From Clostridia bacterium (GTDB lineage Bacteria > Bacillota > Clostridia > Oscillospirales > CAG-272), in assembly GCA_017625755.1 (NCBI GenBank), contig JAGAKG010000036.1, positions 92,952 to 156,951 of the forward strand: a stretch of DNA of 64,000 bases. Reading direction: 5' to 3'. A program made the position numbers and the translations under genes. The notes beneath the pieces are model-generated. The model was not told the DNA's origin. It did not search any database and was given only the letters and a program-made list of their open reading frames with translations. Positions 33,869 to 57,308 of the stretch are shown here, piece by piece; the stretch's first letter is position 1; every line of letters begins with the position of its first letter.

Positions 33869-35497
33869 ATGGCTACGGGAAGGGCGATAAACAGAGTAAG
33901 ATTGGGAGTAAATATGACACAGGAGCAGTTTGCAACCGCCGTTGGAGTTTCTCATCAGGCTGTGCAGAAATGGGAGTCGGGCGCGGCTATTCCATCTGTC
34001 GAAAAGTTGATGAAGATATCAAGGCTTTTCGGCGTGACGGTAGACTCGCTTCTCTTTGAGAGCGATATGAGGATATCCGAGGAGATGGAGAGCAATAAGA
34101 AGCTATACCCGAATTACGAAAAGATGTATCACAGAGAGCTTTATTCCTGCACGCTTGCCGACGAATATATACAATGCGTCGAGGAGGGGAAGGATATTTC
34201 CGCCTACCGCGATGTATTTGAGGCGGTGATGCGTATGCCGCGCGGAGCGAACAGAGAGAAAATGGCGGATATCTTGTTTGACATAGTCCTCAACGCAAAG
34301 CAGAGAGAGGGCTACCCATATAACGAGCCTTCGGATATAGAGGGGATAAGGGCTTTGAGAGCAGATTATTCTTACCGACGCAGAGCTGAGAGCGAAGCAG
34401 AGCTTAAAAAGAAGATACACGGTGCCTGGATGGGGCGTGTGTGTGGCTGCCTGCTTGGAAAGCCTGTTGAGGGAATTCGCAGCGAGGAGCTGATTCCAAT
34501 GCTCCGCGAGTCGGGCAACTATCCTATGCACAGATACATTCTGTCCTCGGATATTACAGAGGAGATAAAGAGCAACAGCAAGTTCCGCTTCGGCGGAAAG
34601 TGTTATGCTGATACGGTTAGCTGTATGCCCGTCGATGACGATACGAATTATACGGTTATGGCGCAGGAGATAGTCAGCACCTACGGCAGAGAATTCACAC
34701 CGTACGACATTTCTCTGGCGTGGCAGTATTACCAACGAAGAGAGGCGTATTGCACGGCAGAGAGAGTGGCTTTCCGCAATTTTGTGAACGGCTATGAGCC
34801 GCCCGAATCGGCGATATATAAAAATCCTTACAGGGAGTGGGTAGGAGCGCAGATAAGGGGTGATTATTTCGGATATATCAATCCTGGCGAGCCTGAGATT
34901 GCGGCGGATATGGCGTTCAGGGACGCGTGTATTTCCCACACGAAGAACGGTATTTACGGCGAGATGTTCATCGCCGCGATGATCGCCTGCGCCGCCGTGA
35001 GTGATTCTGTGGAGGATATTATTCTCTGCGGGCTTGCCCAGATTCCGTCCACATCGAGGCTTTTCGAGGCGGTAAGCTTCGTGCTTGATGTATACAGACG
35101 AGGCGGTGATACTGAGGAATGTATGTGCAGAGTACACGAGCTTTACGATGAGCATACAACCCACGGTTGGTGTCATACTGTATCCAACGCAATGATAGTA
35201 ACAATGGCGCTGCTCTGGGGTGAGAACAATTTCGGAAAGTCTATATGTCTTGCGGTTCAGAGCGCGTTTGATACCGACTGTAACGGCGCGACTGTCGGCT
35301 CGATACTCGGAATGAAAAACGGCATTGATTCGATAGGAGAGGAGTGGTACGCTCCCGTCAACGACAGGATAGATACTACGCTTTTCGGAATTGAAAGGGT
35401 GAGAATATCCGAGTGTGTTGAGAAAACTATGGCTCACCTGCCCGAAAAAAGCTTCAAGGCGGGGAAGAAAGCCGAGGGATTCAGCTATATTCCGTAA
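33869..35497 (+). CDS. XRE-family HTH domain fused to an ADP-ribosylglycohydrolase-family domain
   Basis: The N-terminus MTQEQFATAVGVSHQAVQKWESGAAIPSVEKLMKISRLFGVTVDSLL is an XRE HTH. The C-terminal roughly 330 aa carry ARH-type motifs (GAWMGRVCGCLLGKPVEG, DTDCNGATVGSILG). Confidence 0.75.
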   Translation: MATGRAINRVRLGVNMTQEQFATAVGVSHQAVQKWESGAAIPSVEKLMKISRLFGVTVDSLLFESDMRISEEMESNKKLYPNYEKMYHRELYSCTLADEYIQCVEEGKDISAYRDVFEAVMRMPRGANREKMADILFDIVLNAKQREGYPYNEPSDIEGIRALRADYSYRRRAESEAELKKKIHGAWMGRVCGCLLGKPVEGIRSEELIPMLRESGNYPMHRYILSSDITEEIKSNSKFRFGGKCYADTVSCMPVDDDTNYTVMAQEIVSTYGREFTPYDISLAWQYYQRREAYCTAERVAFRNFVNGYEPPESAIYKNPYREWVGAQIRGDYFGYINPGEPEIAADMAFRDACISHTKNGIYGEMFIAAMIACAAVSDSVEDIILCGLAQIPSTSRLFEAVSFVLDVYRRGGDTEECMCRVHELYDEHTTHGWCHTVSNAMIVTMALLWGENNFGKSICLAVQSAFDTDCNGATVGSILGMKNGIDSIGEEWYAPVNDRIDTTLFGIERVRISECVEKTMAHLPEKSFKAGKKAEGFSYIP

Positions 35498-41222: not shown

Positions 41223-43265
41223 ATGAAAAAGACTATAATTTTATTGCTTTGCTTAATGCTGATATTGCCGATGGCGCTGTCGTCGTGTAAAAAAGACGGG
41301 GATATGGGCGAGCAGAGCGACTCTGAGCAGACTACTGTCGCCACGACCGAGTACGATTACAGCAAGATTCCCGATGTGATAGAGCCGCACGAGAGAAAGC
41401 TTATCGCGTCGTCCGAGCTTGGATTGCTCGCGTATTTTACGGGAACCGAAAAATACTATGTTGCCGATGCGAAGGTTGAGGAGAACGGAGATATAACGCT
41501 GACATCGTATAACCCCGGTACAACGGTAATTACGGTTAAGAATTCCTACGGCGAGGAGATGTCGCTCACCGTTACCGTCGGTCTTGACTACGATTTTGAG
41601 AGCATTGATATAAGAAAATTTGAAATGCCCGATAATTATGTTTATGCAACCAATTACGGAATGAACCCCGAAAGGAGCGACAACGCAAAGTACCTTCAAG
41701 CTGCGATAGATTCGCTTAAGACCGGCGGTGTCGTGTATATTCCGAAGGGCAATTATTACAGCACCTTCGTCCGACTAAAAAGCAATGTAAAGCTAAGGCT
41801 TGAGGGTATTCTCCCCGAGTATAACACCGAATTTACCGACGAGCTTTCGGCGGCTATCGAGAGCGGTAATACCTTCGCTCGAATAATCGCCGTGAACGGA
41901 GATATGTTCGCTAACCACGAGAAAGGCGGATACGGAAGATACGGAGCCGATAACTTTGAGATAACGGGCGGAGTGCTTGATATGGCGGGCAAATCCAGAT
42001 GCTTTATCTGGTGCTGCGCAGAGAATGTTCTGCTTGAAAATGTTATTATGACCGATTGTATGAATGACCACGCGATACAGGTTACAGGGTGCAAAAATGT
42101 GACTATCCGCAATGTAATGTTTGCCGGATATAATGCGGGTAGTAATACGAGTGGCGCCGAGTTGATACAGATAGAGACCTCACACCCGGGAGCTATCGGA
42201 ACGGGAACGGTTACAGCGTCGAAGTTCGATGAATATGAATTTTATAGCTGTGAGAATGTAGCCATAGAAAACTGTTATTTCGGCAAGAGTGACAGGTACG
42301 ATTCTGCGACCTATTTTATCGGTCACCATGTGCATAATTCGGGGCCGAGTGTCAGGGGCTTGAAGATAATGGATTGCACATTCGACAACCCGAGAATCGT
42401 TGCCATACGCGCATACGCGTTTACCGATGTTGAGATTGCCGATTGTGTCTTTCTTTCCGACGAGTCCAACTCGGTCGTAAGCGAGGCGAGATACATGATA
42501 GAGCTGACCTTTAATACGGGGCATGTCAAGCTCCCCTCGGGCGCATATCTTTCAACCGCCGAGGACAGGGGCGGAACGCAGAATTTGCGGATACACGATA
42601 ACGAATTTACCATAGGAGATGACTCCTCTATGGCGGGATTTATCAAGACCTTGCGGTCGGGAATAACTCAGTACGACGCTATGGGATACTCAAATATTTC
42701 CGAGACGGATTTTTACACCGAGACGCCGAAAAGCTTTACGGGATATAAGCTTGTGACAACTCGGATTTCGGATATATATCTCCACAATAACAGCTTCACC
42801 GTAAGCAACGGAGCGGACGATAACCTCTTTTATCTCAAGGATGTGAGAGGCGTTGAATTCAAAGGAAATACCTTTGATATCGACGGAGTGGAGATTCTCG
42901 GCGACGATTATTACGGCGCATATCTTGAGGGTTCGACTATGGCGGAGGAATGTCGGAAAAATTTTGTTATAAAGGCAACCTCTGCAAACCGTGACACTCC
43001 GATAGTTCTCGTGTCGGCGGCTGGGAATATCGAGGCTTACTGTACCGCGTCAAGTACAGGTAGCTATTACAACCTGATAGTCAGCTGCGAGGAGGGCGGT
43101 GTGATTGAGCGTCGAACCGATAAAAACGGCGTACTTTATGTCGAGGCTGTCGCCGATGAGGGATATAAATTCGTAGGATATCGCGCCGACGGACAGATGA
43201 TTGAAGCAGAGAATTTTGCTTTCTCGACAACAACCGAAATCGAAGCGATTTTTGAGAAAAAATAA
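41223..43265 (+). CDS. Lipoprotein with a predicted right-handed beta-helix (pectate-lyase-fold) domain
   Basis: Signal peptide with lipobox LSSC. NYGMNPERSDNAKYLQAAIDSLKTGGVVYIPKGNYY is typical of pectate-lyase-3 or tailspike-like beta-helix N-caps, and repeated NVxIxNCxF-like rungs follow. Confidence 0.6.
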   Translation: MKKTIILLLCLMLILPMALSSCKKDGDMGEQSDSEQTTVATTEYDYSKIPDVIEPHERKLIASSELGLLAYFTGTEKYYVADAKVEENGDITLTSYNPGTTVITVKNSYGEEMSLTVTVGLDYDFESIDIRKFEMPDNYVYATNYGMNPERSDNAKYLQAAIDSLKTGGVVYIPKGNYYSTFVRLKSNVKLRLEGILPEYNTEFTDELSAAIESGNTFARIIAVNGDMFANHEKGGYGRYGADNFEITGGVLDMAGKSRCFIWCCAENVLLENVIMTDCMNDHAIQVTGCKNVTIRNVMFAGYNAGSNTSGAELIQIETSHPGAIGTGTVTASKFDEYEFYSCENVAIENCYFGKSDRYDSATYFIGHHVHNSGPSVRGLKIMDCTFDNPRIVAIRAYAFTDVEIADCVFLSDESNSVVSEARYMIELTFNTGHVKLPSGAYLSTAEDRGGTQNLRIHDNEFTIGDDSSMAGFIKTLRSGITQYDAMGYSNISETDFYTETPKSFTGYKLVTTRISDIYLHNNSFTVSNGADDNLFYLKDVRGVEFKGNTFDIDGVEILGDDYYGAYLEGSTMAEECRKNFVIKATSANRDTPIVLVSAAGNIEAYCTASSTGSYYNLIVSCEEGGVIERRTDKNGVLYVEAVADEGYKFVGYRADGQMIEAENFAFSTTTEIEAIFEKK

Positions 43266-43811: not shown

Positions 43812-43840
43812 TTGACAAAATATATTTACAGTAGTAAACT
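43812..43840 (+). promoter_or_regulatory. Putative sigma-A promoter of the giant gene
   Basis: TTGACA (43812-17), a 17-nt spacer, then TAAACT (43835-40). Confidence 0.45.
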
Positions 43841-43865: not shown

Positions 43866-43903
43866 TTACCGCATAATTCCCGTTATGCGGTAAAATTTTT
43901 CTT
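43866..43903 (+). promoter_or_regulatory. Leader hairpin with U-tract (possible attenuator) in the 5' UTR of the giant gene
   Basis: ttaccgcataa-ttcccg-ttatgcggtaa forms a perfect 11-bp stem and is followed by aatttttctt. It lies 12 nt upstream of the GGAGG RBS. Confidence 0.45.
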
Positions 43904-43928
43904 GTACTACATTATGGAGGTAAATCTA

Positions 43929-46900
43929 ATGAGTAACACCAAAAAAATGTGGATTCGCATTTTGTGTTTGACTTTCGTGCTGTTCAGTATTTTTGCACTG
44001 AACTCCTGCGACGAGAATGACGCAAGCGCTGAATGCGAGCACACATGGGGCGAATGGACGGTTGTGTCCGAGGCTTCCTGCGAGGAAGACGGAGAGAAGC
44101 AACGCGTTTGTTCTGAATGCGAAGAAACAGAAACGAGAGCCATAGCGGCGCTTTCTCACGATTTCGGTGAATGGAGCGTAACTAAGGCGGCAACCTGTAC
44201 CGAGGAAGGCGAGGAGACGAGAGTTTGCTCTCGTAATTCCGAGCATACCGAAACCCGCACGGTTGCAAAAATTGCCCACACCTTTGATGTTGAGAAGGAA
44301 GATGTGGCGTATCTGAAGAAAGAGGGAAGCTGCACAGAGAAGGCTGTATACTACAAGTCGTGTAAGTGCGGCGAGAAGGGAACCGAGACATTTGAGAGCG
44401 GAACACCTTCACATACATACGACAGAGAGGTCGTTGACGCGAAGTTCCTCAAGAGCGAGGCAACATGCACCGCTAAGGCTGTGTACTACAAGTCCTGCGA
44501 GTGCGGCGCGTTTGACGCTGAGAGCAGCGAGACCTTCGAGAGCGGAGCGACCATTCCTCACACATACGGTGAGTCGGTAGTGGCTCCGAGATATCTCAAG
44601 AGCGAAGCAACCTGCACGGACAGAGCTGTTTATTACAAGTCCTGTAAGTGCGGCGCCTTTGACGCTCTCGCGAGCGAGACTTTTGAGAGCGGAAGCCTTG
44701 AGTCTCACAAATACGACAGAGCTGTCGTTGACGCCGAGTACCTCAAGAGCGAAGCTAACTGTAATTCGGCAGCTGTATATTACAAGTCTTGTAAGTGCGG
44801 CGCGTTCGATACGGGCGTAAGCGGAACCTTTGAGAACGGCGACAAGACACCTCATGTTTATGACAGAGCTGTTGCCGAGTCGAAGTATGTCAAGACTCCC
44901 GCAAGCTGCACCGAGAAGGCTGTATATTATAAGTCGTGTAAGTGCGGCGCGTTCGATAAGAGCGTAAGCGAAACCTTTGAGAGCGGGGCGCTTATGCCTC
45001 ACAGCTATGATAAGAGAGTCGTTGACGCGAAGTACCTCAAGAGTGAGGCTACTTGTACCTCTAAGGCTGTATACTACAAGTCTTGTAAGTGCGGCGACTT
45101 TGATACTGCTCTTAGCGATACATTCAAGAGCGGTGAGATGCTGCCTCATATCTATGACAGAGAGGTAGTTTCCTCAGAGTATCTCAAGAGCGGGGCGACC
45201 TGCACGGCTAAGGCTGTATACTACAAGTCCTGCGAGTGCGGACATAAGGGAAGCGCAACCTTTGAGTACGGCAATATTCTGCCTCATGTATACAACAAAG
45301 AGGTAGTTGCAGACAGATATCTCAAGAGCGGAGCGACCTGCACAGAGCTGGGCGTATATTATAAGTCCTGTGAGTGCGGCGCGTTTGACGCAGACCTGAG
45401 CGCAACATTCAGCGGCGGCGAGCTTATTCCTCACACATATAACAGAGAGGAGGTTGCCGACAAATATCTCAAGACCGAGGCAACCTGCACAGCTAAGGCT
45501 GTATACTACAAGTCCTGCGAGTGTGGCGCGTTCGACCGCTACGATAGCGAAACCTTTGAGAGCGGTACCACCATTGCTCATACCTACGATAGAGAGGTAG
45601 TTGATTCCAAGTACATCGCAAGCGAGGCAACCTGTACCTTGGCGGCTACATATTATAAGTCGTGTAAGTGCGGCGCGTTTGACGCGTCTCTCAGCGCAAC
45701 CTTTGCGTACGGCGAGCCTATCGCTCATACTTACGACAGAGAGGTCGTTGAGGCAAGATACCTTGCAAGCGCGGCTACCTGCGAGGCAAGAGCGCGTTAT
45801 TATAAGTCCTGTAAGTGCGGCGCGCACGATAATGCTCTCAGCGGAACATTTGAGTATGGCGACCTTCAGGGACACAACCATGTTCAGATAGCATTTACCG
45901 CGGCAACCTGTACGGTTGACGGCGTCAGAATAGAGGAGTGTACCGTCTGCGGTGATACGATAGAAACTCCTATCATCGCGCAGGGACACAACTATGTTGA
46001 CGAGGTGGTTGAGCCTAAGTGTCTGACTGTTGGCTACACTAAGCATACCTGTTCCGAGTGCGGAGATAACTATTCCGATTCCGAGGTTCCCGCAACGGGA
46101 CACCTTGTATTCGACGATAGGGTTATCGCGCCCACCTGCGAGGACGGCGGATACACCGAGCATAAGTGCAATGCGTGCGGATTTATTGAAAAAATCAATC
46201 CCACCGCAAAGCTCGGCCACGATTATCAGGAGCAGATTCTGACTCCCGCGGACTGTAAGACGGCGGGAACAAAGAAGATAAGCTGCTCGAGATGTGACTA
46301 TGAAAATACCGAGACTATACCTACCACGGACCATAACCATAACTCGGTTACGACTCCCGCAACCTGTACGGTTGACGGATATATAACCTACACCTGCGTA
46401 TGCGGAGATACATACACCGTTGCTGGCGAGGCAGCTCAGGGACATAGCTGGAGCAAGACTCCTGTTTCTCCCACCTGTACCGAGCAGGGATACACTTTCT
46501 GGGAGTGTGACAACTGCGACGCAGAGGAGAAGCACGATTTCGTTGCGGCTAACGGACACAGCTTCAGTGCCGCAACCTGTGCCGAGCCCGAGAGGTGCGC
46601 GTGCGGAGCTACGGGCGCTGCGGCTACTGGCAATCACAATTATGTCGGAGTAGAGACGACTGCTCCCACCTGTACCGTAAAGGGTGTTATGACATATACC
46701 TGCGGTACCTGCGGAGATTCTTATACAGAGGACATAAGCGCGACGGGACACAACACCGAGGGAGCTATCTGGACGGAGACCGAGCAGTGTATAGACGGCA
46801 AGTGTACTTATGTAAAGATAAGCACTACGACCTGTCTTAACAACAATTGCGGAGTTACCGTTTCCGAGACATCCGCTTCCTATGAGAAGCACTCCTATTT

Positions 46901-49900
46901 GGCAACGATAACTCAGGCGGCAACCTGTACCGTACCCGGTATCAAGACATATAAGTGTACCGTCTGCGGCGGTCAGCCCGCTGAGAACGCGACCGTTGAG
47001 TATTCCGAGGCATCGGGACACACCTGGATCGAAACCGCTTCGACGACGACTACCAAGTCCTACGAGTGCTCTGCTTGCGGCGAGACAAAGACGGTAGTAC
47101 ACAGCGACGGTAACTCGGCGAATGTCGGTGCGAGCGACCTCAGCTCCTCGGGCGGAGTCAACCTCGGCGGAACCGAAATAGAGCTTGACTCGGCTACCAA
47201 GGAGCAGTTGGGACAAATCACTCAGACTGAGAATATTACTGTCTCCGTCAATAAGATAGAGGGAAATGACAGAAACGACCTTGTCAACGACGAGACTCAG
47301 CTTGAATATATCGGCGACGCTCCCATCTACGACCTCACTATGTTGATAGGCGGAGATGAAAACAACAAGATAAGCAACTTTAACGGTAAGGTCACCGTTC
47401 GTATACCCTACACGCTTGAGAGCGGCGACGACCCCGAGAATCTTACCATCTGGTATATTGATGACAACGGAGAGGTTTCCACTATCGACGGAGCGACCTA
47501 TGTCGTTATCGGCGGTCAGGGATATGCGGTATTCGAGACCGACCACTTCTCATACTATACCGTTACAAAGCTCACCCCCGCAGAGCGTTGTGAGCGTGAC
47601 GGACACATAGAAAAGACTATCAAGCAGAATGCAACCTGCCTTATAGGCGGATACGAAAAGACAGTATGTACCCGTTGCGGAGAGGTTCTTGAGAATAAGA
47701 CAACTCCCGCGCTCGGACACAATTGGAGCCAGGAAGTAATCTCCGAGGCTACCTGTGACGAGGCAGGTCAGACCAAGCACTCCTGCGACAGATGTAAGCT
47801 CGTTTACTACACGGTAACTGCTGCTATCGGTCACAAGTGGGCAGAGGATAAGACTGTTGAGGCAAGCTGCTCCGAAACAGGATATATTCTTTACATCTGT
47901 GAAAATAACAAGGCGCATACCTATACGGTAGTTATACCTAAGAAGAACCATAGCTATGTATCTGTGGTTACAAAGCCTACATGTACGACAGAGGGATATA
48001 CGACTCATACCTGCTCTGATTGCGGAGCAAGCTATATCTCCGACCGCGTAAAGGCAACGGAGCATAAGATAGTAACCAAGGTAGTTGAGCCTACCTGTAT
48101 CTCCGAGGGATACACGGCACAGTCCTGCGAGAAATGCGGACAGCGTTTCAAGGATATAGACATAGTTCCCAAAACGGGACATAGCTGGGATATAGAAGCT
48201 CCCACTTGTAGCAAGGGACAGACCTGTACTGTATGTAACGCGGCGGGTGATGCTGCTACGGGCGAGCATAATATGACAGAGAAGGGCGAATGCTCCGATT
48301 GCGGAAAGGCGTGCGAGCATAAGTTCTATCAGGGAGAGGTTCACGCTCCCACATGTATTGAAAACGGTTACACCGAATACATCTGTAACTTCTGCGGACT
48401 CGTTGAGAACCGCGATGTCGTAGAGCACGGCGACCACACCTGGAAGGATGCCGAGCATAAGGCGGCAACCTGTACCGACGACGGTTACGATAAGTGGATA
48501 TGCTCTGTATGCGGTGAGACCAAGACAGAGATAATTTCTCACGGAGACGGATTCCATAAGACCTCTACCAAGGTCGTTGCTCCTACCTGCGAGGAGGAGG
48601 GATACACACTTCAGTTCTGTAAGGTCTGCGGACAGGAAATAGAGCGTACAAACGCAGTTCCCGCAACAGGACACAAGTATGAGGTAATCGAGAATGTCGA
48701 GGCTACCTGCGAGAAGGACGGTTATATAATTGCCAAGTGCGCGGGTTGCGGACACGAGACCGAAAAGGTACTTGAGGCAACGGGACACAGCTACAGTGTT
48801 TACGAGGTTATAGAGCCTGAGTGCGGCAAGGAAGGCGCGACTGTATACAAGTGTTCGGGCTGTGGCTCGACATACGAGGAGCCTATCGAGGCGCTTAAGC
48901 ATAACTTTGAGCAGTACGGTAAGGTAGAGCCTACCTGTGAGGGTGAGGGAGCTATACTTTACAGATGTACCGCCTGCGGAGTTGAGATAGCGGAGATAAT
49001 CAAGGCAAACGGACATAACTACGAGCTTTCCGAGACGGTTGATTCTACCTGTACAGTAAACGGTAAGAAGATATACGCTTGTACGGCTTGTGACTCCACC
49101 GTGGAGGAGGAGCTTGAGCTGGCTGACCACAATTATGTTGACGGTAAGTGCGAGGCGTGCGGAAAAGAGCAGTCCTCTTGCAAGCACGCAAGTCTTGAAG
49201 ATTGCGATGTAACATACAAGTTTATAAACGGCTCGACTTCCTGCGAGGAAGGTGTTGAGGTGATCTACACCTGCCCGAACTGTGAGCAGGTAGTAATCTC
49301 CGAGATAAGAGACGGACATATTTACAGACGCGAGGATATTTCGGCTGACTTTGATGTTGCGGGTAACATTTTCGTTGAAAAGTGTATAATCTGCGACAGA
49401 GGAGATATCTATATCAAGCTTCCCAACTGTCAGATGATGTCTACGACAGATAAGCATATTGACGAAGAAGGAAATACCGTCGTAGTTGAGACATATCTGT
49501 GCGTTGACTGCGGATTCAGCTATACTCGCAAGATGACCGTGAAGTCGGAAGACTGCAGGTCTGAATATGAGTATGTATACACATTCGGTAAGGACGGATA
49601 CACCGTAAGAATAGTGAACATTGCGGAGTCTCACAACTACTTTACCGAGTGGGAGGAGTTTATTGACGAGGAGAATCTCACACTCACCGAGGTCGGAATA
49701 CGCTCCTGCAAGGATTGCGGCAAGGTATTCTACCGCAGAACAGATACGATGAAGTATCTTGCTGAGGATATTCCTCTTGAGTTTATTGAGACATTGGAGC
49801 TTGCTCTTGACGATAAGGGAACAGAGTTTATTTTGGTTGAGAAGGAAGCTCAGCGCGCTGAATACGAGATAACCGAGGACGGTGAGTATATCCCCGTTGC

Positions 49901-52900
49901 TATGGTTGGAAGCTATACCACTTACAACAGTAAGGGTGAGCCCGCAACCGTAGAGGAGGAGATAGAGAAATACACCGCCGACGGCGATGAGAGCTATTTC
50001 TACGCGGCACTGTATAATTACATCTGCGGCGAAAAGGTACTCATAGAATATGAGGAAGAAGAATATGTTACAGTCACACTGCCCGGCGGATACGAGAAGA
50101 ACTTTATCGCATCCAACAAGGCGGGTGAGTATGACATAAACGGAGAGGTCATCTACCTTTACGAGGAGACCTACACCTACGAGATAATTGAGGGTGAATC
50201 CTGCAAGATCAATGTAACTTACTCCGATTCCGAGGGTAACACGGATACCTTCGTTAAGGAAGCGCATGTCAATGTTGAGAAGTTTATCGAATTTGCAGAA
50301 GGCTCGAACAGCTGTACTCAGGGTGTATATACCGTAGAGAGATGTACCGTTTGCGAGACCGAGATAAACCGTACTTACAGAACACACCATTCGCTTTATA
50401 GCTATGCTGACGATGAAATCGATGCGGGCGAGCTGGGATGCGAATGCGGCGGATTTATATCTCGTGTTCACTGCGAGTACTGCGATTATGAGTCTGTAAA
50501 TTACCACTTCAACTGTGATATGTCTGAGGGCGGATACGATTACGACGGCGACGGTAAGTTCGATACTCCCGAGGTCGTTCTTCCCGTATTGCCGAACGAC
50601 TCCAAGTACGATGTCGGATACGGCACCGTTGACGGAGATATCGCGTATGACGAGGAGATCGGCGGCGATAACTGGGGCGAAATCGTAGATGGAGATACGA
50701 CTACATCGACCTTCAAGACCGAGCAGACCTGCCGCAACTGCGGATTCAGCTATTCTGTTGAATGGTACACCGAGCGCGGCGAGAACTGCCAGGTTACTAA
50801 GTATTACACATATAGCTTTGGTAAGGATGCCGACGGAAACGCTCTGCTCGTAATAGAAACGGTAGACGATTCGAGCTACACGCATTCCTACACAAGCGAA
50901 GAGAAGATGCTTGAGGATACCTACGAAACTCAGGCTGACGGAAGCGTACTGCTTGTAACTGTCTTTGAAACAAAGACATATTGCGTAAGTTGCGGTCATG
51001 TTTCAAGTTACGAGCGTGTTACGGTTAAGCGCGACACCGAGGGCTATGTTCTTTACGAGGGACGCGAGCATATAAGCGGTGAAGGCGATAATAGCTATGT
51101 ATCCGAAAAGATAGAGACTATCTACGAGAAATATAAGCATCCCGACGGAACTGTCGAGACACGCCAGACCGGCTGGGGTGAGTACAGATACAACCAGCTC
51201 GGCGAGGAGATTTATTTCTCGAGAGACACCTATATATACAATGATGAAACTCCCTGTATCGTAACCGTTATCTGGGAAAACTCGAACGGTGACCGCGAGG
51301 AGCATAAAGAAGAAAACCACGAATTTACCAGAGTTCCCGTACTCGTAGAGGGTGCGGAGAGCTGTGAGGACGGCGTTCGTATCGTTGACAGATGTACCGT
51401 CTGCGGATACGAGGAGGACGAGGGCAGAACAGTCAATTGGCACTATACCGTAAACGAGCATATCGACTTTGCGCCTTACGGCTCTATCTGCGGAGCTTGG
51501 ATGAATATTGAAACTTGTGCGTGCGGACAGAGTTCTTACATCTACTTCGAGCGCGCGGGAATGTTCAATATTCAAAATGGCTCCTACAAGGACGAGAACG
51601 GCAATATGCACAAGCTCGAACGCGGCGAATGTATGGCTGACGGCTTCTGGTACGAGATAGACTACTATTCGGTAAGAGGAGAGAACTGCTCTGTTACCGA
51701 GTATTCGGTATATCGCTTCGGTAACTCCGAAAGCAAGGAAGCGCTCCTTGAAAAATCGATAGTAAGAGAGAGAAAGGGCGCTCATAAGACAGAGTTTAAG
51801 GAGATCGTCAATGAGACGACTCAGGAGTTCGACGAGGTAACGGGCGAGGTTCTGAATGTTCATACATACGAGGTAGCTCACACATGTATGAATTGCGGAA
51901 CTGTAACAGACCACTACCGTACGGTCGATAAGAACGACAAGCTCGGAAATTCCGTATATCATAAGAACGAGAATTTCTTTACCGCTTCGAATGGCGTTGA
52001 GTATCTGGGTAACAGCTTTGAGGCACTCTATATGTCCGTAAAGCTTGCCGATGGAAGCATAGCTACGGTAGAGCTATCCACCTCCAATAAGGAATACGAC
52101 GAAAACGGAAATCTTACCTGGTTTGAGGATACCGTTTACGAGTATGTCGGCGGATACTGTGAATATATTGCTCACAGGACAAACAGCGACGGAAACGAGT
52201 GGGAAGAAAAGGGTGAGAATCACGGAGCGACTGTTGAGAGAGTAACTCTCATGGAAGGCGCCGAGACATGTGACGACGGTGTTATATGTACTCATGTATG
52301 CCTGCTCTGCGGAAAGGAAACATACAGAACCGAATTCTATCATCACTATACCGTATATGAGAGTGTTGATCTTAGCGAGTACGGCTGCAAGTGCGGCGGA
52401 CAGTTCGATGCCAATACCTGCGCGTGCGGAATGTATAATAACTTCGATATAGGCGCAGGCTGTGCGTTCGAGTCCACCCGTACAACGGTAGTTGACGCAG
52501 AGGGCAACAAGCATACTGTTACGACCTATACCTGTATGAACTGCAACTTCTCTTACTCGAGAGAGACCTGGAGAGAGACAGGCGCGTTCTGCCATACCTA
52601 CTACTACACGGTATTCAATATAGGTCTTGATGCGGAAGGCAATGCGGCGATAGTCAAGACCACGGTTAAGGATGCGGGAACCTCCCACAACATCACGACT
52701 GAGGGCGGAGAGGCTATAAAGACCACCGAGACCGATGAAAACGGAAATATACTTACCGTAGTTACGACAGAGATAAAGAATTACTGTCTCATTTGCGGAA
52801 CCGTTGAAACGCACTTCGTAACGGTTGAAAAGTACAACGCAAACAACGATGTTGTTTACAAGGCCAACACGAATTACGCCTTTGCCGATGGAAAAGAGTA

Positions 52901-55900
52901 CATCTGTAACGAGATTGTTGAGAAATTCGAGATAGTACTTCTCGCAAACGGAAATCAGAAGCAGCTTTTGACAGAATCCTCTAATTACACCTACGCTCCC
53001 GACGGAAGCATACTTGAATTTATCGTATATGAATACGAGTATACAGAAGGCGATTACTGTAATGTTAAGGTTACATACAACAGTAGCAATGGAAGCGATA
53101 GCTATACCGAGGAAAGACACGGTAGCCTCCAGGAGAGCTTTGCTCTCATGGAGGGCGCTACCAACTGCTATGAGGGAGTTCTTGTAACCAACACCTGCCT
53201 TGATTGCGGTAAGGTAGTAAATACCGAAGAGATTTACAGACATGTTACCAGATGTGAGACGGTAAATCTTAGCGAGTACGGAAGTGTATGCGGCGATTTC
53301 ATTGACTTCTATTCCTGCCCCTGTGGCGAGAATAATCATTACAAGCAGGCTTATGCGTGCGCTTACACCTGCGTGGAAAGCAAGTATGATATACTAAACG
53401 GATTTGAGCGTGCATACGAGGCTTACCGTTGTATGAATTGTGGTTTCGAATATACCTACGAGCGTTGGACGGAGCTTGACGAGAACTGCAACGGCGCTCA
53501 GTACACCAAGTATTCCTTCGGTAAGGACGAAAACGGCAATCCTCTCGGTGAGAAGATAGTTGAGATTTCTATGAAGGAAGCTCATAATTGGACATATGAC
53601 GAGGATATCGTTGAATCTGTGGAGACAGACGAGAACGGTAACACACTCAAGGTCATCACTACCGAGAGAACCGAGTACTGCTCGAACTGCGCGAAGCGTA
53701 GCTTCCGCGAGATTACCGTTGAGAAATTCGACGATAAGGGTAACATAGTATTCAGAGAAACAAGCAGATACTATACCGACGAAAAGGGAGAATATCTCTC
53801 CGAGACTGTTACAAGCACATTCGCGACGGGTGTTAAGGCAGACGGCACGAGCTTCACATATGAGGCTTCGCGCAAGACGCTCTACCACTACGGTATTGAC
53901 GCAGGCTACTGGTGCCAGTACACCTACACCTACAAGGACGGAAACTGGTGCACAAGGTATGTCACTATGACTGCATCCGACGGAAACAGCAATAGCTATG
54001 TCGAGGAGAACCACGGAGAGTACAAGACGGTAGTTACGCTTATGGACGGAGCGGCAGACTGTAACAGCGGCGTAATCGTAAGCGAGATGTGTGTCGACTG
54101 CGGAACCGTATTTAAGTCTTACGATGCTTATCATCACTATATGGTAACTGAAAGGATAGATGCGTCCACACTTGGTTGCGGCTGCGGCGGAGAGGTAGTT
54201 ATTGACGCCTGCGCTTGCGGATATCAGTCGAATGTTCATGTTAAGACCGGTTGTACATTCAATATCACCTCTGACAAGGTAGATAACGGAGACGGAACGA
54301 CTCATAACACCAGCATATACGCCTGCGATATCTGCGGCTTCAGCTATACCTATGAGCGTTGGAACGAGTATGACGAGAACTGCGTCAACTACAACAACAA
54401 GGTTTATAAATTCGGACTTGACAAGGAGGGCAATCCTCTCCTTGTCAAGGAGATCAGATTAAGCCGCGGTGAGAATCACAGCTACTCGGGTATCAATAAC
54501 GAAGCTGTTGAAACCACAGAGATAGACAAGGCAGGAAATGAGCTTCGCGTCGTTACTACAACAGAATCGAACTCCTGCACGCGTTGCGGCAGATTCGGTC
54601 ATATGAATGTAACCGTAGAGAAATACCTTACCGCAAACGCTGAAATGGGCGACGAAATCTGCGTATATATCTGCAAGGAAAACTATATCCCCTCTGTCGA
54701 GGCAGAGAACGGTATCTATCTCCATAGCCAGGATATATGGGAGTACGGTTATTACACCGACGCACACGGTAAGCTCGCTACCTATCCTACTCTTGAATAC
54801 ATCGTATACTACAATGTTTACGGTGAGATAGACGACTTCCAGCGTTACGAGTATTCCTACAAGGAAGGCAACTATTGCGTTGCAACGGTGCTTTATACTA
54901 ACTTCTACGGAGACAAGAGCGAGGAAGTAAGAACGAATCACTCCGAAGTTCACTTTGATTACATTCTCTCCAAGGGAAGCGAGTCCTGCGCTGACGGAAT
55001 CGACCTCGTAGAGCTTTGCGTAGCCTGCGGAACCGAAATATCCCGTATGGAAAATTACACCAAGGAGCATCTGTTCTGCGATACCCCCTCGAGTGTAATA
55101 GACCTTGAGCAGTACGGCTCTGTCTGCGGCGGCGAGCTTCAGATATTCACCTGCCCTTGCGGAAAGAAGGAGAACACAAATATAGTTTCGGATTGTCCCT
55201 TCAACTATACGGGCGAGTATTACACCTACACGGCAGCGGACGGAAGCACCCATACCCGTGAGATAATGACCTGCCCCGTTACCGACCCCGAGCTTTGCGG
55301 ATTCAGCTATGTCTATATTGATTGGCAGACCTCCGATGAGAACTGTATGGCAGTTTCCCATCGCGTTATCCTTCTCGGAGTTGACGCCAAGACAGGAGAT
55401 TACGCTTATAAGTATGAGGCTACCTACGGTGAGGATTATTACAATCACTCGATGATAAATTCTTATAACACCTACATCACCGACGACGGCAAGACTGTTA
55501 CCGAGAGTGTAAATACCTGCGAGAAGTGCGGAGCCATATCCTACAAGAACATAACAACATCTTATGTTGACGAAAACGGAGACAATGTTTTTGAGCAGGA
55601 GTCATACTATTATAGGACGGAATTGGCGGATAACGCCGTTCTCAGCCATAATTACAGAATAAACATCACGAGAGATGTTAAGGTTGGCGACGAGACTCGT
55701 AGCGTAACGGTTTACACAAAGAACGAGGAATACGGCTATCTCGATGAGCTTATGTATTGGACTGAGGAATCCTATGTATATAACGAGGAATCCTGCTGTA
55801 CGGGAACAAGAAATGTGAAGAGATACCATGCGGATAAGGATATAATCAACGAGGAAAGCTACGACTTTGATAATCATTCAATCCACAACAGCGAGATTAT

Positions 55901-57212
55901 CGTTGAGGCAACCTGTACTCAGGTCGGAATAGCTGTTCATAGCTGTGGCTACTGCGATTATTCCTACCAGACCGAGGACGCTCCTATGGGACATATGTAT
56001 CAGTTCAAGCCCACAGAGAATTTGTGGATATGCCGCAATTGCGGACTTGAGAATTTCACGGGCGTCGACGGAGAGGTTATCTTTGAGGATCTCACAGCCC
56101 GTCGCGGCGACGGAAGCCGGTATATTGTCGGTTACCGCAACCACTGGGGAAGTGAGTATATCTTCTCGCTTTATCTCGTGATAGACGGAGAGGAGCTTCC
56201 GATAGACCTTGAGGCTATTGACGACGGAAAATCTCTCGTATATATTGATGTAAACGCCGTTGCTAAGCTTGCCGAGGCTATGGGATATAAGCCCTGCGCT
56301 TATATGGTATGCCTGCGCTTCGTGCCGATAGGCGACGATTCGGGATACTACTATGATTTTGCTATCACGCTTGATCCTCACGCGTACGCCATAGACGAGG
56401 AAAACAGCGTAATTCCCGAGGATCCCTGCACGCAGCAGACGGTTACCGCTTATAAGTGTGTTCTTTGCGGCGACAGCTACACAGAGACTGTTCTCGCGGG
56501 ACACGACACAGAGTGGATAAGCAATTCTATCGGTGATTGCGGCTCGGCTATCAATGTTGAGGTCTGCAAGGTGTGTGATAAAATTTTCACCGTAGAGAGA
56601 CAGCAGGCTTGTGACTTTGAGTATACCTGTTCCACCGAGACCGATGAGAACGGTATTACCCGTACGATAGAAAATTATGTCTGCCGCAACTGCGGAGCAA
56701 GCTATGCGCACGAGTATTACACAATCTCCAAGGAGTCATGCTTCTCTGATGAGTACAGCATTACCAGATGGGGACTTCAGGATGACGGAAGCTATGCTTT
56801 CGAGGCAACGGTAGTTACCGAGAGTGAATCTCATATCTATGTTTCCAAGAGTGACATTACTGAGGAAGGATATACTACCGTAATCACCAAAACCACGGCG
56901 TGTGAGGATTGCGGAAAGATATCGAGTCAGAATATAACTACTACCGTAGTAGACGAAAACGGACACAATGTATCTCAGCTTATAGATAGCTTGACTTCTA
57001 ACGGTGTTCGCACCAAGAATTACAGAGAGTACTTTACTGCCGAGAACGGTGGCTCCTATGAGTCAATTCGCACATTTGAGCGTATTGACGCGAACGGTGT
57101 GTTGACCGGTTATACTATGGTTTACGAGTATGACTTTGAGGCAGGCGTTCGCTACTGGACCAGAACCGATGTTAGCGGAAAGGTTACAGAAGGAAAAGAC
57201 GCTATAAAGTAA
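43929..57212 (+). CDS. Giant (about 4,427 aa) Cys/His-rich multi-repeat putative surface lipoprotein, function unknown
   Basis: One uninterrupted ORF. GGAGG lies 8 nt before the ATG at 43929. The signal peptide MSNTKKMWIRILCLTFVLFSIFALNSC has a lipobox-like Cys. Three tiers of repeats follow, then terminator hairpins. I see no C-terminal LPXTG, SLH or TM anchor. Confidence 0.85.
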   Translation: MSNTKKMWIRILCLTFVLFSIFALNSCDENDASAECEHTWGEWTVVSEASCEEDGEKQRVCSECEETETRAIAALSHDFGEWSVTKAATCTEEGEETRVCSRNSEHTETRTVAKIAHTFDVEKEDVAYLKKEGSCTEKAVYYKSCKCGEKGTETFESGTPSHTYDREVVDAKFLKSEATCTAKAVYYKSCECGAFDAESSETFESGATIPHTYGESVVAPRYLKSEATCTDRAVYYKSCKCGAFDALASETFESGSLESHKYDRAVVDAEYLKSEANCNSAAVYYKSCKCGAFDTGVSGTFENGDKTPHVYDRAVAESKYVKTPASCTEKAVYYKSCKCGAFDKSVSETFESGALMPHSYDKRVVDAKYLKSEATCTSKAVYYKSCKCGDFDTALSDTFKSGEMLPHIYDREVVSSEYLKSGATCTAKAVYYKSCECGHKGSATFEYGNILPHVYNKEVVADRYLKSGATCTELGVYYKSCECGAFDADLSATFSGGELIPHTYNREEVADKYLKTEATCTAKAVYYKSCECGAFDRYDSETFESGTTIAHTYDREVVDSKYIASEATCTLAATYYKSCKCGAFDASLSATFAYGEPIAHTYDREVVEARYLASAATCEARARYYKSCKCGAHDNALSGTFEYGDLQGHNHVQIAFTAATCTVDGVRIEECTVCGDTIETPIIAQGHNYVDEVVEPKCLTVGYTKHTCSECGDNYSDSEVPATGHLVFDDRVIAPTCEDGGYTEHKCNACGFIEKINPTAKLGHDYQEQILTPADCKTAGTKKISCSRCDYENTETIPTTDHNHNSVTTPATCTVDGYITYTCVCGDTYTVAGEAAQGHSWSKTPVSPTCTEQGYTFWECDNCDAEEKHDFVAANGHSFSAATCAEPERCACGATGAAATGNHNYVGVETTAPTCTVKGVMTYTCGTCGDSYTEDISATGHNTEGAIWTETEQCIDGKCTYVKISTTTCLNNNCGVTVSETSASYEKHSYLATITQAATCTVPGIKTYKCTVCGGQPAENATVEYSEASGHTWIETASTTTTKSYECSACGETKTVVHSDGNSANVGASDLSSSGGVNLGGTEIELDSATKEQLGQITQTENITVSVNKIEGNDRNDLVNDETQLEYIGDAPIYDLTMLIGGDENNKISNFNGKVTVRIPYTLESGDDPENLTIWYIDDNGEVSTIDGATYVVIGGQGYAVFETDHFSYYTVTKLTPAERCERDGHIEKTIKQNATCLIGGYEKTVCTRCGEVLENKTTPALGHNWSQEVISEATCDEAGQTKHSCDRCKLVYYTVTAAIGHKWAEDKTVEASCSETGYILYICENNKAHTYTVVIPKKNHSYVSVVTKPTCTTEGYTTHTCSDCGASYISDRVKATEHKIVTKVVEPTCISEGYTAQSCEKCGQRFKDIDIVPKTGHSWDIEAPTCSKGQTCTVCNAAGDAATGEHNMTEKGECSDCGKACEHKFYQGEVHAPTCIENGYTEYICNFCGLVENRDVVEHGDHTWKDAEHKAATCTDDGYDKWICSVCGETKTEIISHGDGFHKTSTKVVAPTCEEEGYTLQFCKVCGQEIERTNAVPATGHKYEVIENVEATCEKDGYIIAKCAGCGHETEKVLEATGHSYSVYEVIEPECGKEGATVYKCSGCGSTYEEPIEALKHNFEQYGKVEPTCEGEGAILYRCTACGVEIAEIIKANGHNYELSETVDSTCTVNGKKIYACTACDSTVEEELELADHNYVDGKCEACGKEQSSCKHASLEDCDVTYKFINGSTSCEEGVEVIYTCPNCEQVVISEIRDGHIYRREDISADFDVAGNIFVEKCIICDRGDIYIKLPNCQMMSTTDKHIDEEGNTVVVETYLCVDCGFSYTRKMTVKSEDCRSEYEYVYTFGKDGYTVRIVNIAESHNYFTEWEEFIDEENLTLTEVGIRSCKDCGKVFYRRTDTMKYLAEDIPLEFIETLELALDDKGTEFILVEKEAQRAEYEITEDGEYIPVAMVGSYTTYNSKGEPATVEEEIEKYTADGDESYFYAALYNYICGEKVLIEYEEEEYVTVTLPGGYEKNFIASNKAGEYDINGEVIYLYEETYTYEIIEGESCKINVTYSDSEGNTDTFVKEAHVNVEKFIEFAEGSNSCTQGVYTVERCTVCETEINRTYRTHHSLYSYADDEIDAGELGCECGGFISRVHCEYCDYESVNYHFNCDMSEGGYDYDGDGKFDTPEVVLPVLPNDSKYDVGYGTVDGDIAYDEEIGGDNWGEIVDGDTTTSTFKTEQTCRNCGFSYSVEWYTERGENCQVTKYYTYSFGKDADGNALLVIETVDDSSYTHSYTSEEKMLEDTYETQADGSVLLVTVFETKTYCVSCGHVSSYERVTVKRDTEGYVLYEGREHISGEGDNSYVSEKIETIYEKYKHPDGTVETRQTGWGEYRYNQLGEEIYFSRDTYIYNDETPCIVTVIWENSNGDREEHKEENHEFTRVPVLVEGAESCEDGVRIVDRCTVCGYEEDEGRTVNWHYTVNEHIDFAPYGSICGAWMNIETCACGQSSYIYFERAGMFNIQNGSYKDENGNMHKLERGECMADGFWYEIDYYSVRGENCSVTEYSVYRFGNSESKEALLEKSIVRERKGAHKTEFKEIVNETTQEFDEVTGEVLNVHTYEVAHTCMNCGTVTDHYRTVDKNDKLGNSVYHKNENFFTASNGVEYLGNSFEALYMSVKLADGSIATVELSTSNKEYDENGNLTWFEDTVYEYVGGYCEYIAHRTNSDGNEWEEKGENHGATVERVTLMEGAETCDDGVICTHVCLLCGKETYRTEFYHHYTVYESVDLSEYGCKCGGQFDANTCACGMYNNFDIGAGCAFESTRTTVVDAEGNKHTVTTYTCMNCNFSYSRETWRETGAFCHTYYYTVFNIGLDAEGNAAIVKTTVKDAGTSHNITTEGGEAIKTTETDENGNILTVVTTEIKNYCLICGTVETHFVTVEKYNANNDVVYKANTNYAFADGKEYICNEIVEKFEIVLLANGNQKQLLTESSNYTYAPDGSILEFIVYEYEYTEGDYCNVKVTYNSSNGSDSYTEERHGSLQESFALMEGATNCYEGVLVTNTCLDCGKVVNTEEIYRHVTRCETVNLSEYGSVCGDFIDFYSCPCGENNHYKQAYACAYTCVESKYDILNGFERAYEAYRCMNCGFEYTYERWTELDENCNGAQYTKYSFGKDENGNPLGEKIVEISMKEAHNWTYDEDIVESVETDENGNTLKVITTERTEYCSNCAKRSFREITVEKFDDKGNIVFRETSRYYTDEKGEYLSETVTSTFATGVKADGTSFTYEASRKTLYHYGIDAGYWCQYTYTYKDGNWCTRYVTMTASDGNSNSYVEENHGEYKTVVTLMDGAADCNSGVIVSEMCVDCGTVFKSYDAYHHYMVTERIDASTLGCGCGGEVVIDACACGYQSNVHVKTGCTFNITSDKVDNGDGTTHNTSIYACDICGFSYTYERWNEYDENCVNYNNKVYKFGLDKEGNPLLVKEIRLSRGENHSYSGINNEAVETTEIDKAGNELRVVTTTESNSCTRCGRFGHMNVTVEKYLTANAEMGDEICVYICKENYIPSVEAENGIYLHSQDIWEYGYYTDAHGKLATYPTLEYIVYYNVYGEIDDFQRYEYSYKEGNYCVATVLYTNFYGDKSEEVRTNHSEVHFDYILSKGSESCADGIDLVELCVACGTEISRMENYTKEHLFCDTPSSVIDLEQYGSVCGGELQIFTCPCGKKENTNIVSDCPFNYTGEYYTYTAADGSTHTREIMTCPVTDPELCGFSYVYIDWQTSDENCMAVSHRVILLGVDAKTGDYAYKYEATYGEDYYNHSMINSYNTYITDDGKTVTESVNTCEKCGAISYKNITTSYVDENGDNVFEQESYYYRTELADNAVLSHNYRINITRDVKVGDETRSVTVYTKNEEYGYLDELMYWTEESYVYNEESCCTGTRNVKRYHADKDIINEESYDFDNHSIHNSEIIVEATCTQVGIAVHSCGYCDYSYQTEDAPMGHMYQFKPTENLWICRNCGLENFTGVDGEVIFEDLTARRGDGSRYIVGYRNHWGSEYIFSLYLVIDGEELPIDLEAIDDGKSLVYIDVNAVAKLAEAMGYKPCAYMVCLRFVPIGDDSGYYYDFAITLDPHAYAIDEENSVIPEDPCTQQTVTAYKCVLCGDSYTETVLAGHDTEWISNSIGDCGSAINVEVCKVCDKIFTVERQQACDFEYTCSTETDENGITRTIENYVCRNCGASYAHEYYTISKESCFSDEYSITRWGLQDDGSYAFEATVVTESESHIYVSKSDITEEGYTTVITKTTACEDCGKISSQNITTTVVDENGHNVSQLIDSLTSNGVRTKNYREYFTAENGGSYESIRTFERIDANGVLTGYTMVYEYDFEAGVRYWTRTDVSGKVTEGKDAIK
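44277..45872 (+). repeat. Eleven tandem 45-49 aa (135-147 bp) coding repeats (tier A)
   Basis: Consensus HTYDREVVDAKYLKSEATCTAKAVYYKSCKCGAFDxxxSETFESGxxxP. Nine units are 49 aa, one is 45 and one is 46, which totals 532 aa and fills the interval exactly. The YYKSC(K/E)CG cores recur at about 44341, 44471, 44620, 44770, 44915, 45063, 45210, 45350, 45493, 45645 and 45790. Confidence 0.9.
45873..47102 (+). repeat. Tier B block 1: about 11 coding repeats of roughly 38 aa with an H...C-x9-C-x2-C pattern
   Basis: Examples are GHNYVDEVVEPKCLTVGYTKHTCSECGDNYSDSEVPAT and GHSWSKTPVSPTCTEQGYTFWECDNCDAEEKHDFVAAN. Two related units also lie at the N-terminus (about 44030-44276). Confidence 0.8.
47580..49178 (+). 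repeat. Tier B block 2: about 15 further H...C-x9-C-x2-C repeats
   Basis: Examples are HKIVTKVVEPTCISEGYTAQSCEKCGQRFKDIDIVPKT and GHKYEVIENVEATCEKDGYIIAKCAGCGHETEKVLEAT. A Cys-free insert at 47103-47579 separates this block from block 1. Confidence 0.8.
49179..57209 (+). repeat. Tier C: eight divergent super-modules of about 260-357 aa, plus one divergent interruption
   Basis: Module-initial C-x9-C-x2-C knuckles have their first Cys codons at 49242, 50313, 51363, 52269, 53166, 54060, 54987, 55914 and 56427. Recurrent internal landmarks are HHY, YGCxCGG...CACG, YxCxNCGFSY...ENC, FGxDxxGN, TDENGNxLxVxTTExxxYCxxCG, TVEKxDxxGN and YCxxxVTY. Confidence 0.8.
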
Positions 57213-57271: not shown

Positions 57272-57308
57272 AAAAAAACGCTCGGAGATTTTTCTCCGAG
57301 CATTTTTT
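57272..57308. terminator. Bidirectional intrinsic terminator
   Basis: aaaaaaa-c-gctcggaga-tttt-tctccgagc-a-tttttt lies between the convergent giant gene and the ACP gene. Confidence 0.8.

Follow-up and report, generated by a model that had tools for sequence, protein, structure and literature searches.

The 64,000 nt stretch of Clostridia bacterium DNA analysed here (the window, to which all coordinates refer) carries a single 13.3-kb open reading frame (ORF) at 43902-57212 on the + strand, of 4,436 codons when counted from TTG. Its product contains 241 Cys and 71 CxxC or CxC knuckles, which raises the question of what such a chain folds into and what it does. The protein corresponds exactly to MBO5415874.1 (P0001), annotated as "MAG: hypothetical protein [Clostridia bacterium]", where MAG is a metagenome-assembled genome. 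The distal 60% of the chain is made up of eight modules, each composed of an A-half and a B-half (A+B), together with the C-terminal domain of a protein family. The answer proposed is that the protein is a metal-stapled beta rod, a structural reading to which a probability of about 0.65 to 0.7 is attached. With a stalk or adhesin function included, the full statement is considered to have a somewhat better than even chance of being correct.

An earlier note, made from the sequence alone, had described eight divergent super-modules of about 260-357 aa in this region, marked by C-x9-C-x2-C knuckles and by an ordered string of landmarks. A regular expression scan of the translated ORF reproduced these knuckles at 49242, 50313, 51363, 52269, 53166, 54060, 54987, 55914 and 56427, with spacings of 357, 350, 302, 299, 298, 309 and 309 aa, and the 16 Cys attributed to the module near 52240 were counted in 52233-53129. 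There are 19 further C-x9-C-x2-C knuckles upstream in the giant protein, therefore the knuckle by itself is no marker of a module start. When the sequence is cut 12 residues before each knuckle, eight segments result, 273-357 aa in length. Their MAFFT alignment is colinear, with 21-36% identity, and the consensus retains the landmark string with its order unchanged. With the database size set to 1e8, BLASTP E-values were 6e-47 to 2e-4 for 25 of the 28 module pairs. Modules 1 and 3 reached an E of only 1.1, and modules 1 and 2 and modules 1 and 7 were not reported; all three pairs are connected via other modules. The modules are true paralogous units. Matches between them at the DNA level extend over only 31-51 nt, with 62-80% identity, at sites encoding the motifs, and no DNA repeat of >80% over >51 nt is present in the module array.

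A profile of the eight modules was searched among 1.84 billion clusters at 50% identity, and 518 family clusters were matched, 242 of them at E<1e-30. Among the 150 matches listed, every protein is long (566-5,967 aa), and the profile matches each in 3-24 stretches. Most of the matched stretches cover only profile positions ~11-160. The module is therefore composite, with an A-half of ~150 aa that contains three knuckles and a B-half of ~150 aa that contains one knuckle and long hairpins. The ~300-aa super-module is thus a real unit, but it should not be seen as the elementary one.

The layout of the family was assessed in a census of 175 proteins, made up of 150 representatives and 25 loci from GTDB species genomes; the alignment subset sharing G..SCEDGV was used for the GTDB scan. 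Exactly one full A+B is present in 129 of the 175 proteins and two or more in 16, while A-only units have a median of 6 per protein and a maximum of 20. The last module is a full A+B in 142 out of 145 proteins. The usual layout is a repeated A-half with a single A+B at the end, followed by the conserved C-terminal domain. Homologous modules in single copy had been proposed as a route to the ancestral unit, and the minimal members (L018, L027, L012, L010 and L024) do have zero or one A-half and a single A+B. The eight A+B of the window protein are the highest number among the 175 sampled. All 25 GTDB loci are from MAGs of rumen, human, chicken, yak or deer gut, and almost every one bears the label Clostridia, Oscillospiraceae, Faecousia, Lachnospiraceae, Ruminococcus or Eubacteriales.

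For three modules (the last one, the one preceding the C-terminal domain, and module 1, which carries a long insertion), the best match in the nearest relative, P0002, is the module that occupies the corresponding position. Identity between same-position modules is 30-32%, versus ~25% for other pairs. The module array is therefore older than the split from P0002, in agreement with the older duplication that had been suggested from the divergence of the modules. The other suggestion was diversifying selection. The protein is identical or at least 99.95% identical in five assemblies, with the same length in all, and the near-identical variants differ at 1-2 residues, too few to judge selection. 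The gene of MBO5415874.1 is also present on contigs from a ruminant-gut MAG collection.

The ninth knuckle had been taken to open a divergent segment. Rather than a module in decay, the sequence at 55914-56390 is a C-terminal domain conserved in the family, which is homologous to the last 160-180 aa of 150 of the 175 family proteins and is mostly located within 10 aa, or ~105 aa, of the protein end. It has a full knuckle unit, then a His and CxxC unit without an upstream Cys, and then a Cys-poor, beta-sandwich-like portion of ~110 aa. One extra truncated module lies beyond it in the window protein, in P0002 and in P0039. An AlphaFold2 (AF2) model of the domain from 20 sequences had a mean predicted local distance difference test score (pLDDT) of 90.7 and a predicted template modelling (TM) score of 0.83. 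In Foldseek it matched only weak generic Ig/FN3-like sandwiches (E>=0.05), with no usable TM-score.

Pfam, NCBIfam and PHROGs identified nothing in the giant protein, including the modules and the C-terminal domain, and the module profile returned only noise against PDB sequences. The AF2 model of module 4, from the eight-row alignment, is all-beta, with 21 strands, many of them 10-16 residues long, and a pLDDT of 87.7. All knuckles and all D-x-x-G-N, N-G and D-G motifs are in the inter-strand loops of this model, which places the knuckles and turns at hairpin tips. Such a succession of hairpins could be that of YD/RHS repeats, forming a shell round a C-terminal toxin as in the polymorphic toxins. 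The Y-x-Y and D-x-x-G-N hairpin motifs do occur, the YD shell of teneurin-3 is the top Foldseek match in the PDB, and MORN-repeat and YwqK-like hairpin-repeat proteins lead in the viral library BFVD. However, no PDB match to the module has E<=1e-3. The teneurin-3 match has an E of 3.7e-3, a probability of 0.30, a TM-score of 0.12 and a root mean square deviation of 28.8 Å, and is followed by curved sheets such as LptD and LolA. The BFVD matches have low TM-scores, and the sole one below 1e-3 is a MORN-repeat protein (E 8.2e-4, TM-score 0.09). There is no RHS_repeat (PF05593) or NCBIfam YD match at E<=1 over the 4,436 aa. The chain terminates with a truncated module and has neither an RHS core nor a toxin domain, no immunity-like gene lies downstream, and the Cys/His clusters are foreign to YD repeats. 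A toxin shell is therefore considered extremely improbable, and membership of the YD/RHS family was rejected on the profile, on the cocoon fold and on the core-toxin-immunity arrangement. The likeness to YD/RHS and MORN arrays, which had been noted as superficial, consists of long antiparallel hairpins, D/N-x-x-G turns and aromatic ladder residues. The module differs from these arrays in lacking a profile match, a cocoon and a toxin, in having putative metal clusters and in TM-scores of 0.09-0.27. It shares a local hairpin-ribbon architecture with them, but is not a member of either family.

In a comparison of 1,271 module instances, conservation picks out exactly 16 positions, of which 13 are Cys and 3 are His, with values of 0.77-1.00. 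In the profile numbering used for all module landmarks, these are C13, C23 and C26 (0.99-1.00) with H38 (0.77); C56 and C79 (both 0.83) with C65 and C67 (both 1.00); C103, C106 and C122 (0.97-0.99) with H154 (0.95); and C187, C190 and C278 (0.95-0.96) with H299 (0.98). Losses of H38, C56 and C79 occur singly and independently of each other. A co-loss analysis of the ligand columns gave no informative correlations, owing to their high conservation. Disulfide bonds are common in Cys-rich repeats outside the cell, and an extracellular protein with 241 Cys could be expected to be another EGF-like case, with structural disulfides and no metal. The simple units that precede the modules do not fit this. 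Tier A units (H..C-x10-C-x-C, ~44 aa) and tier B units (H-x11-C-x9-C-x2-C, 38 aa) have three Cys and one invariant His each. The odd Cys count, the invariant His and the independent loss, rather than joint loss, of C56 and C79 argue for metal sites and not for disulfides. The conservation of His 154 and 299 at 95-98% is likewise against disulfides, as is the match of the CxxC-G knuckles to rubredoxin and zinc-finger knuckles at the motif level. In addition, the host is an anaerobic gut spore-former, judging from dpaAB in the window and from the sample source, and no disulfides were seen among the 24 Cys of the homologous immunoglobulin A (IgA) protease of Thomasclavelia ramosa (PMC12237041). 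Disulfide bonding is decidedly improbable for this protein.

The arrangement of the sites was addressed by mean-field direct coupling analysis (DCA) of 805 A-halves and of 180 sequences for the B-half. Couplings among the near-invariant Cys columns are artefact-prone and were set aside. DCA of the A-halves yields the same hairpin ladders as AF2. In these, C13/H38 (i+j=51), C56/C79 (135) and C122/H154 (276) are cross-strand neighbours at hairpin bases, and in the B-half C278/H299 is consistent with the last hairpin ladder. The Cys pairs C23/C26, C65/C67 and C103/C106 are at hairpin tips, 6-12 residues from their own base pair, therefore a base pair and the knuckle of the same hairpin cannot share a metal. 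The non-Cys couplings 12-69 and 55-108 set each base pair beside the next knuckle.

In the wiring proposed from these data, the metal knuckles would be four hairpin tips (C23-x2-C26, C65-x-C67, C103-x2-C106 and C187-x2-C190), and four hairpin bases would each present a cross-strand ligand pair (C13/H38, C56/C79, C122/H154 and C278/H299). A tetrahedral site would form wherever a hairpin's base pair meets the knuckle of the hairpin after it. The sites within a module would be C13+H38+C65+C67, C56+C79+C103+C106 and C122+H154+C187+C190, with Cys3His or Cys4 ligands and most likely Zn(II) as the metal. The remaining pair, C278+H299, would bind the first knuckle of the following module and so act as a staple across the module boundary. 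The simple upstream units may follow the same grammar, with a site formed by Cys13 of unit n-1 and the His and CxxC of unit n. With ~70 knuckles, such staples would make the whole chain a single stiff rod that needs neither disulfides nor an extensive hydrophobic core.

The simplest reading of the sequence is a different one, and is implied by the knuckle picture of the earlier note. The 16 positions form four consecutive fours, C13,C23,C26,H38, C56,C65,C67,C79, C103,C106,C122,H154 and C187,C190,C278,H299, so that each knuckle could bind metal together with its own upstream Cys and following His, as zinc beads on a string. Both DCA and the AF2 model put C13/H38 at the open end of a 6-residue hairpin that has C23/C26 at its tip, and C106 and C122 are at opposite ends of a 10-12-residue strand. 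These distances speak against wiring within the unit.

The two wirings also differ in what they predict for the ends of arrays, which were examined in the 175 proteins. Knuckle arrays of many family members are broken up by similar Cys-free stretches of ~190 aa, and beyond the Cys-free domain the array restarts with a conserved TP.(E/Q)RC...GH cap. Under the chained wiring there is no preceding unit at an array start to give a Cys, therefore a substitute Cys is expected. At array restarts after a Cys-free stretch, a cap Cys is found no more than 7 residues upstream of the first His in 142 of 156 cases, mostly in the form R-C-x3-G-H or C-x-H, compared with 3 of 424 internal units (Fisher p=2e-114). 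At an array end the upstream Cys of the last unit would be partnerless and its absence is therefore expected. It is present in 25 of 379 array-ending knuckles versus 1196 of 1388 internal ones (p=8e-194). The final module, which has nothing after it, lacks C278/H299, and the two positions lost from module 3, C79 and C106, are two ligands of one proposed site. Both fit the chained scheme, as does the retention of 15-16 of the 16 ligand positions in the modules other than these two. Wiring within the unit leaves unexplained the cap Cys (91% versus 1%), the Cys-less array-ending knuckles (7% versus 86%) and the loss of C278/H299 in the terminal module. It is also at odds with the published models of the IgA protease, which set the sites at subdomain interfaces. 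Independent zinc beads are therefore regarded as unlikely.

The comparison with the IgA protease stems from a family-wide tier-B profile, which matches PDB 9qa6_A (the T. ramosa enzyme) at E=7.9e-8. The matched stretches, 857-881, 939-978 and 1103-1134, are in or adjoin ZBD1 and ZBD2 (CTD2 and CTD4), its zinc-binding domains. These domains have been described as end-to-end three-stranded up-and-down sheets with putative tetrahedral His2Cys2 or Cys3His zinc sites at the sheet interfaces, "pending experimental validation"; small-angle X-ray scattering indicated an extended rod, and no structural homologue was found (PMC12237041, PMC12415215). The interface location of these zinc sites agrees independently with the chained wiring. 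The match is lost with a tier-B profile that ends after the knuckle and with a single 533-aa tier-B query. In hhalign, the tier-B profile can be aligned with the super-module's first unit at E=1.1e-4, with a probability of 57%. Homology to the ZBDs holds for the protein and is marginal for the module.

Both the window protein and the IgA protease are extracellular proteins of gut Firmicutes, with up-and-down beta-sheet units of 30-40 aa and the pattern H...(A/P)T(C/A)T..G...C-x2-C, and in both the proposed role is to project a functional domain off the cell. The IgA protease has 2-3 units per domain and about five sites, compared with ~70 knuckles per chain here. It has a C-terminal sortase anchor and an M64 catalytic domain, whereas the window protein has an N-terminal lipid anchor and no enzyme domain. 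Its ligands are mostly His2Cys2, where Cys3His or Cys4 would be used in the window protein. It has no counterpart of the 300-aa A+B, with its three putative interlocked sites and five-long-hairpin sheet carrying a fourth knuckle. The principle of stapling at interfaces was proposed in 2025 for two small domains of this one IgA protease, and is itself barely characterised.

The Y-x-C-x-x-C-G-x-x-Y knuckle at a beta-hairpin tip is a feature shared with zinc ribbons and rubredoxins. Motif-level matches were obtained to rubredoxins, to RNA-polymerase and ribosomal zinc ribbons and to C2H2 fingers, covering only the ~12-residue knuckle; no full-domain match to a zinc ribbon or rubredoxin was found. 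In a zinc ribbon, a single zinc is bound by two CxxC knuckles, which two hairpins of the same three-stranded domain provide, whereas the units here have one CxxC (or CxC) each, together with single Cys/His residues. The knuckles are thus not classic two-knuckle zinc ribbons, a fold that had been put forward as a candidate. The knuckle scores also bear on the identity of the metal. Rubredoxins give the best of these among non-homologous PDB entries, consecutive knuckles align to the two rubredoxin knuckles, and there are ~70 sites per chain, from which rubredoxin-like iron sites in a redox-active extracellular conduit or an iron store could be imagined. The similarity is limited to the ~12-residue motif at E 1e-3 to 0.1, there are no redox partner or cytochrome genes nearby, and Cys3His sites are typical of structural zinc. 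Iron in this role is very improbable.

With regard to function, a 'periscope' role is likely by analogy, with the protein serving as a stalk or adhesin whose rigidity would depend on zinc. The N-terminal lipid anchor, the rod-like units, the distal sandwich domain and the accessory domains and neighbours of relatives together suggest a surface stalk or adhesin scaffold. Such a stalk would keep two things at a distance from the membrane of a gut Clostridia cell, the C-terminal sandwich domain, which is conserved, and the hairpin faces, which vary. The N-terminal sequence, MSNTKKMWIRILCLTFVLFSIFALNS-C, has a lipobox, judged by eye rather than with a predictor, and equivalent lipoboxes (AVSC, LVAC, MSSC and LTAC) begin most full-length relatives. 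Accessory domains in relatives are CBM9_1, SBP_bac_8 with a SusF_SusE-like domain, and Laminin_G_3 (LamG), and one relative is named a dockerin protein. Neighbouring genes at some family loci encode BspA-type leucine-rich repeat (LRR), cohesin-like and Big_2 surface proteins.

The Periscope Proteins (SasG/Aap G5-E repeats; Whelan et al. 2021, PMC8201768, as cited in PMC12415215) resemble the rod proposed here. They are long anchor-to-tip rods of single-layer beta-sheet on the Gram-positive surface, serve as spacers or adhesins and, in the case of Aap, involve zinc. Canonical members have near-identical DNA repeats with a copy number that varies by strain. The window protein is unlike them in this respect, with a module identity of 21-36%, no DNA repeats and a constant length in five assemblies. 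The zinc of Aap bridges two protomers through acidic and His ligands, where an intramolecular Cys staple is proposed here.

Several observations weigh against the rod and its proposed role. H38 is conserved in only 77% of instances. The B-half DCA, from only 180 sequences, has A/B back-contacts at 121-274 and 124-283, which suggest a module more compact than a simple ribbon. Zinc as the metal, the exact ligand wiring, the ligand geometry and the rigidity are putative. The homology of the super-module to the IgA protease domains is weak and concerns its first unit only. Among 26 loci there is no conserved neighbourhood, with no neighbour common to more than four, and the window protein has no recognisable binding domain and no cultured host. 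The role as a stalk or adhesin is argued from analogy and from the accessory domains of relatives.

It is quite unlikely that metal supply sets the stiffness and reach of a fibre of >100 nm as a mechanical zinc read-out, or that the fibre is an iron-bound redox chain. In the zinc-gated case, withdrawal of zinc in the gut through host nutritional immunity or competition would collapse or release the stalk. In either case, the extracellular polymers gated by metal would form a class of their own, new and restricted to uncultured Clostridia of the gut.

No description of this family was found in the literature on giant Cys-rich surface proteins of Clostridia. Neither Pfam nor NCBIfam appears to have a model for it, and its members seem to be named only as "hypothetical protein". 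The super-module, its A/B make-up, the capped chained grammar and the size of the family are undescribed in the libraries and papers examined. Among its members are several of the largest proteins known from uncultured Clostridia of gut and rumen, and for the family a parts list of cap, simple units, A-half, A+B and C-terminal domain is now available. The chained wiring provides a testable rule, by which every metal site would fasten a hairpin's base to the tip of the hairpin after it, including where one repeat gives way to another. If correct, it would account for the folding of an extracellular protein that has 241 Cys and hardly any hydrophobic core, in an anaerobe that does not form disulfides. 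It would also carry the concept of the "metal-associated periscope domain" over to an entire class of giant fibres on the cell surface, and link zinc availability to the way in which abundant gut anaerobes build their surface. The simplicity of the chained design could make it a template for engineered rigid protein rods.

Table 1. Positions of the giant lipoprotein gene, its parts and its flanking signals in the window.
Feature	Position	Strand	Description
Sigma-70-like promoter match	43812..43840	+	TTGACA-17-TAAACT, upstream of the giant gene; consensus match only
12-bp hairpin with T-run	43866-43893		Between the promoter-like site and the giant-gene start codon
Giant lipoprotein gene	43929..57212	+	4,427 aa; ATG 43929 called on two other assemblies; mechanical ORF from TTG 43902
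Signal peptide and lipobox (...FALNS-C)	43929..44009	+	Lipidated Cys codon would be 44007-44009
Upstream part	44289..49205	+	11 tier A units, ~23 tier B units and one Cys-free domain
Cys-free domain	47079-47606	+	~176 aa; ends ...HFSYYTVTKL; interrupts the simple knuckle units
Module 1	49206..50276	+	357 aa; without C56; 59-aa insertion in the B-half (49953-50129)
Module 2	50277..51326	+	350 aa; 16/16 ligand positions; acidic 53-aa insertion in the A-half (50538-50696)
Module 3	51327..52232	+	302 aa; without C79 and C106
Module 4	52233..53129	+	299 aa, 16 Cys; 16/16 ligand positions; the module modelled
Module 4 halves	A-half 52233-52691; B-half 52692-53129	+	
Module 5	53130..54023	+	298 aa; 16/16 ligand positions
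Module 6	54024..54950	+	309 aa; 16/16 ligand positions
Module 7	54951..55877	+	309 aa; 16/16 ligand positions; positional match is the P0002 module preceding the C-terminal domain
Family C-terminal domain	55878..56390	+	Contains the ninth knuckle and the Cys-poor stretch of the earlier note
Last (eighth) module	56391..57209	+	273 aa; truncated at ~profile position 275; without the final Cys/His pair; positional match is the P0002 last module
Terminator-like hairpin with T-run	57280..57301	+	68 nt past the stop codon

The Cys-free domain at 47079-47606 has no match in Pfam or PHROGs. The insertion of module 2 at 50538-50696 (DYDGDGKFD...DGDIAYDEEIGGDNWGEIVDGD) has D-x-D-x-DG motifs that resemble calcium-binding loops, and is not found in the other modules. 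At 53205-53207, in the first knuckle of module 5, an Arg replaces the second Cys in P0151, a 99.95% identical protein from another metagenome. This is either a natural ligand loss or a sequencing error.

The giant gene looks monocistronic. The hairpin at 43866-43893 could be the terminator of an upstream hexapeptide-repeat gene or a 5' leader element. The neighbouring genes have housekeeping and sporulation functions (rplM/rpsI, ComEC, dpaA/dpaB and BipA), and the next genes downstream encode an acyl-carrier protein (PP-binding), ComEC and then DpaAB. A spore-coat or exosporium role was considered on account of the nearby dpaAB and dropped, given the lipoprotein signal and the separation of these genes by the terminator and ComEC.

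Directly upstream, at 41223-43265 (+), is the gene for a 680-aa lipoprotein with the lipobox LSS-C and a right-handed beta-helix. It matches the phage tail-spike family phrog_2234 at E=1.8e-40, and its Pfam Beta_helix and pectate-lyase-like matches are weak and do not reach the threshold. The protein could be a surface enzyme of depolymerase-like type encoded on the chromosome. Its adjacency to the giant gene is not kept in relatives. At the loci L015, L016, L019 and L021 a gene for a BspA-type LRR_5 protein is located directly upstream of the giant gene. In L016 it stops only 8 nt before the giant gene, which may reflect a fusion or an operon.

Long ORFs on the - strand (45174-47546, 47550-50999 and others; 790, 1,149, 319, 421, 303, 329 and 277 aa) tile the giant gene. 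These antisense ORFs are most probably no genes at all, but a by-product of the giant gene's codon composition. Elsewhere in the window, a 1,006-aa ORF at 29694-32714 (+) has no Pfam match at E<=1e-3. The gene at 33869-35497 (+) encodes a 542-aa protein in which an N-terminal HTH_3 DNA-binding domain is fused to an ADP-ribosylglycohydrolase, an unusual combination.

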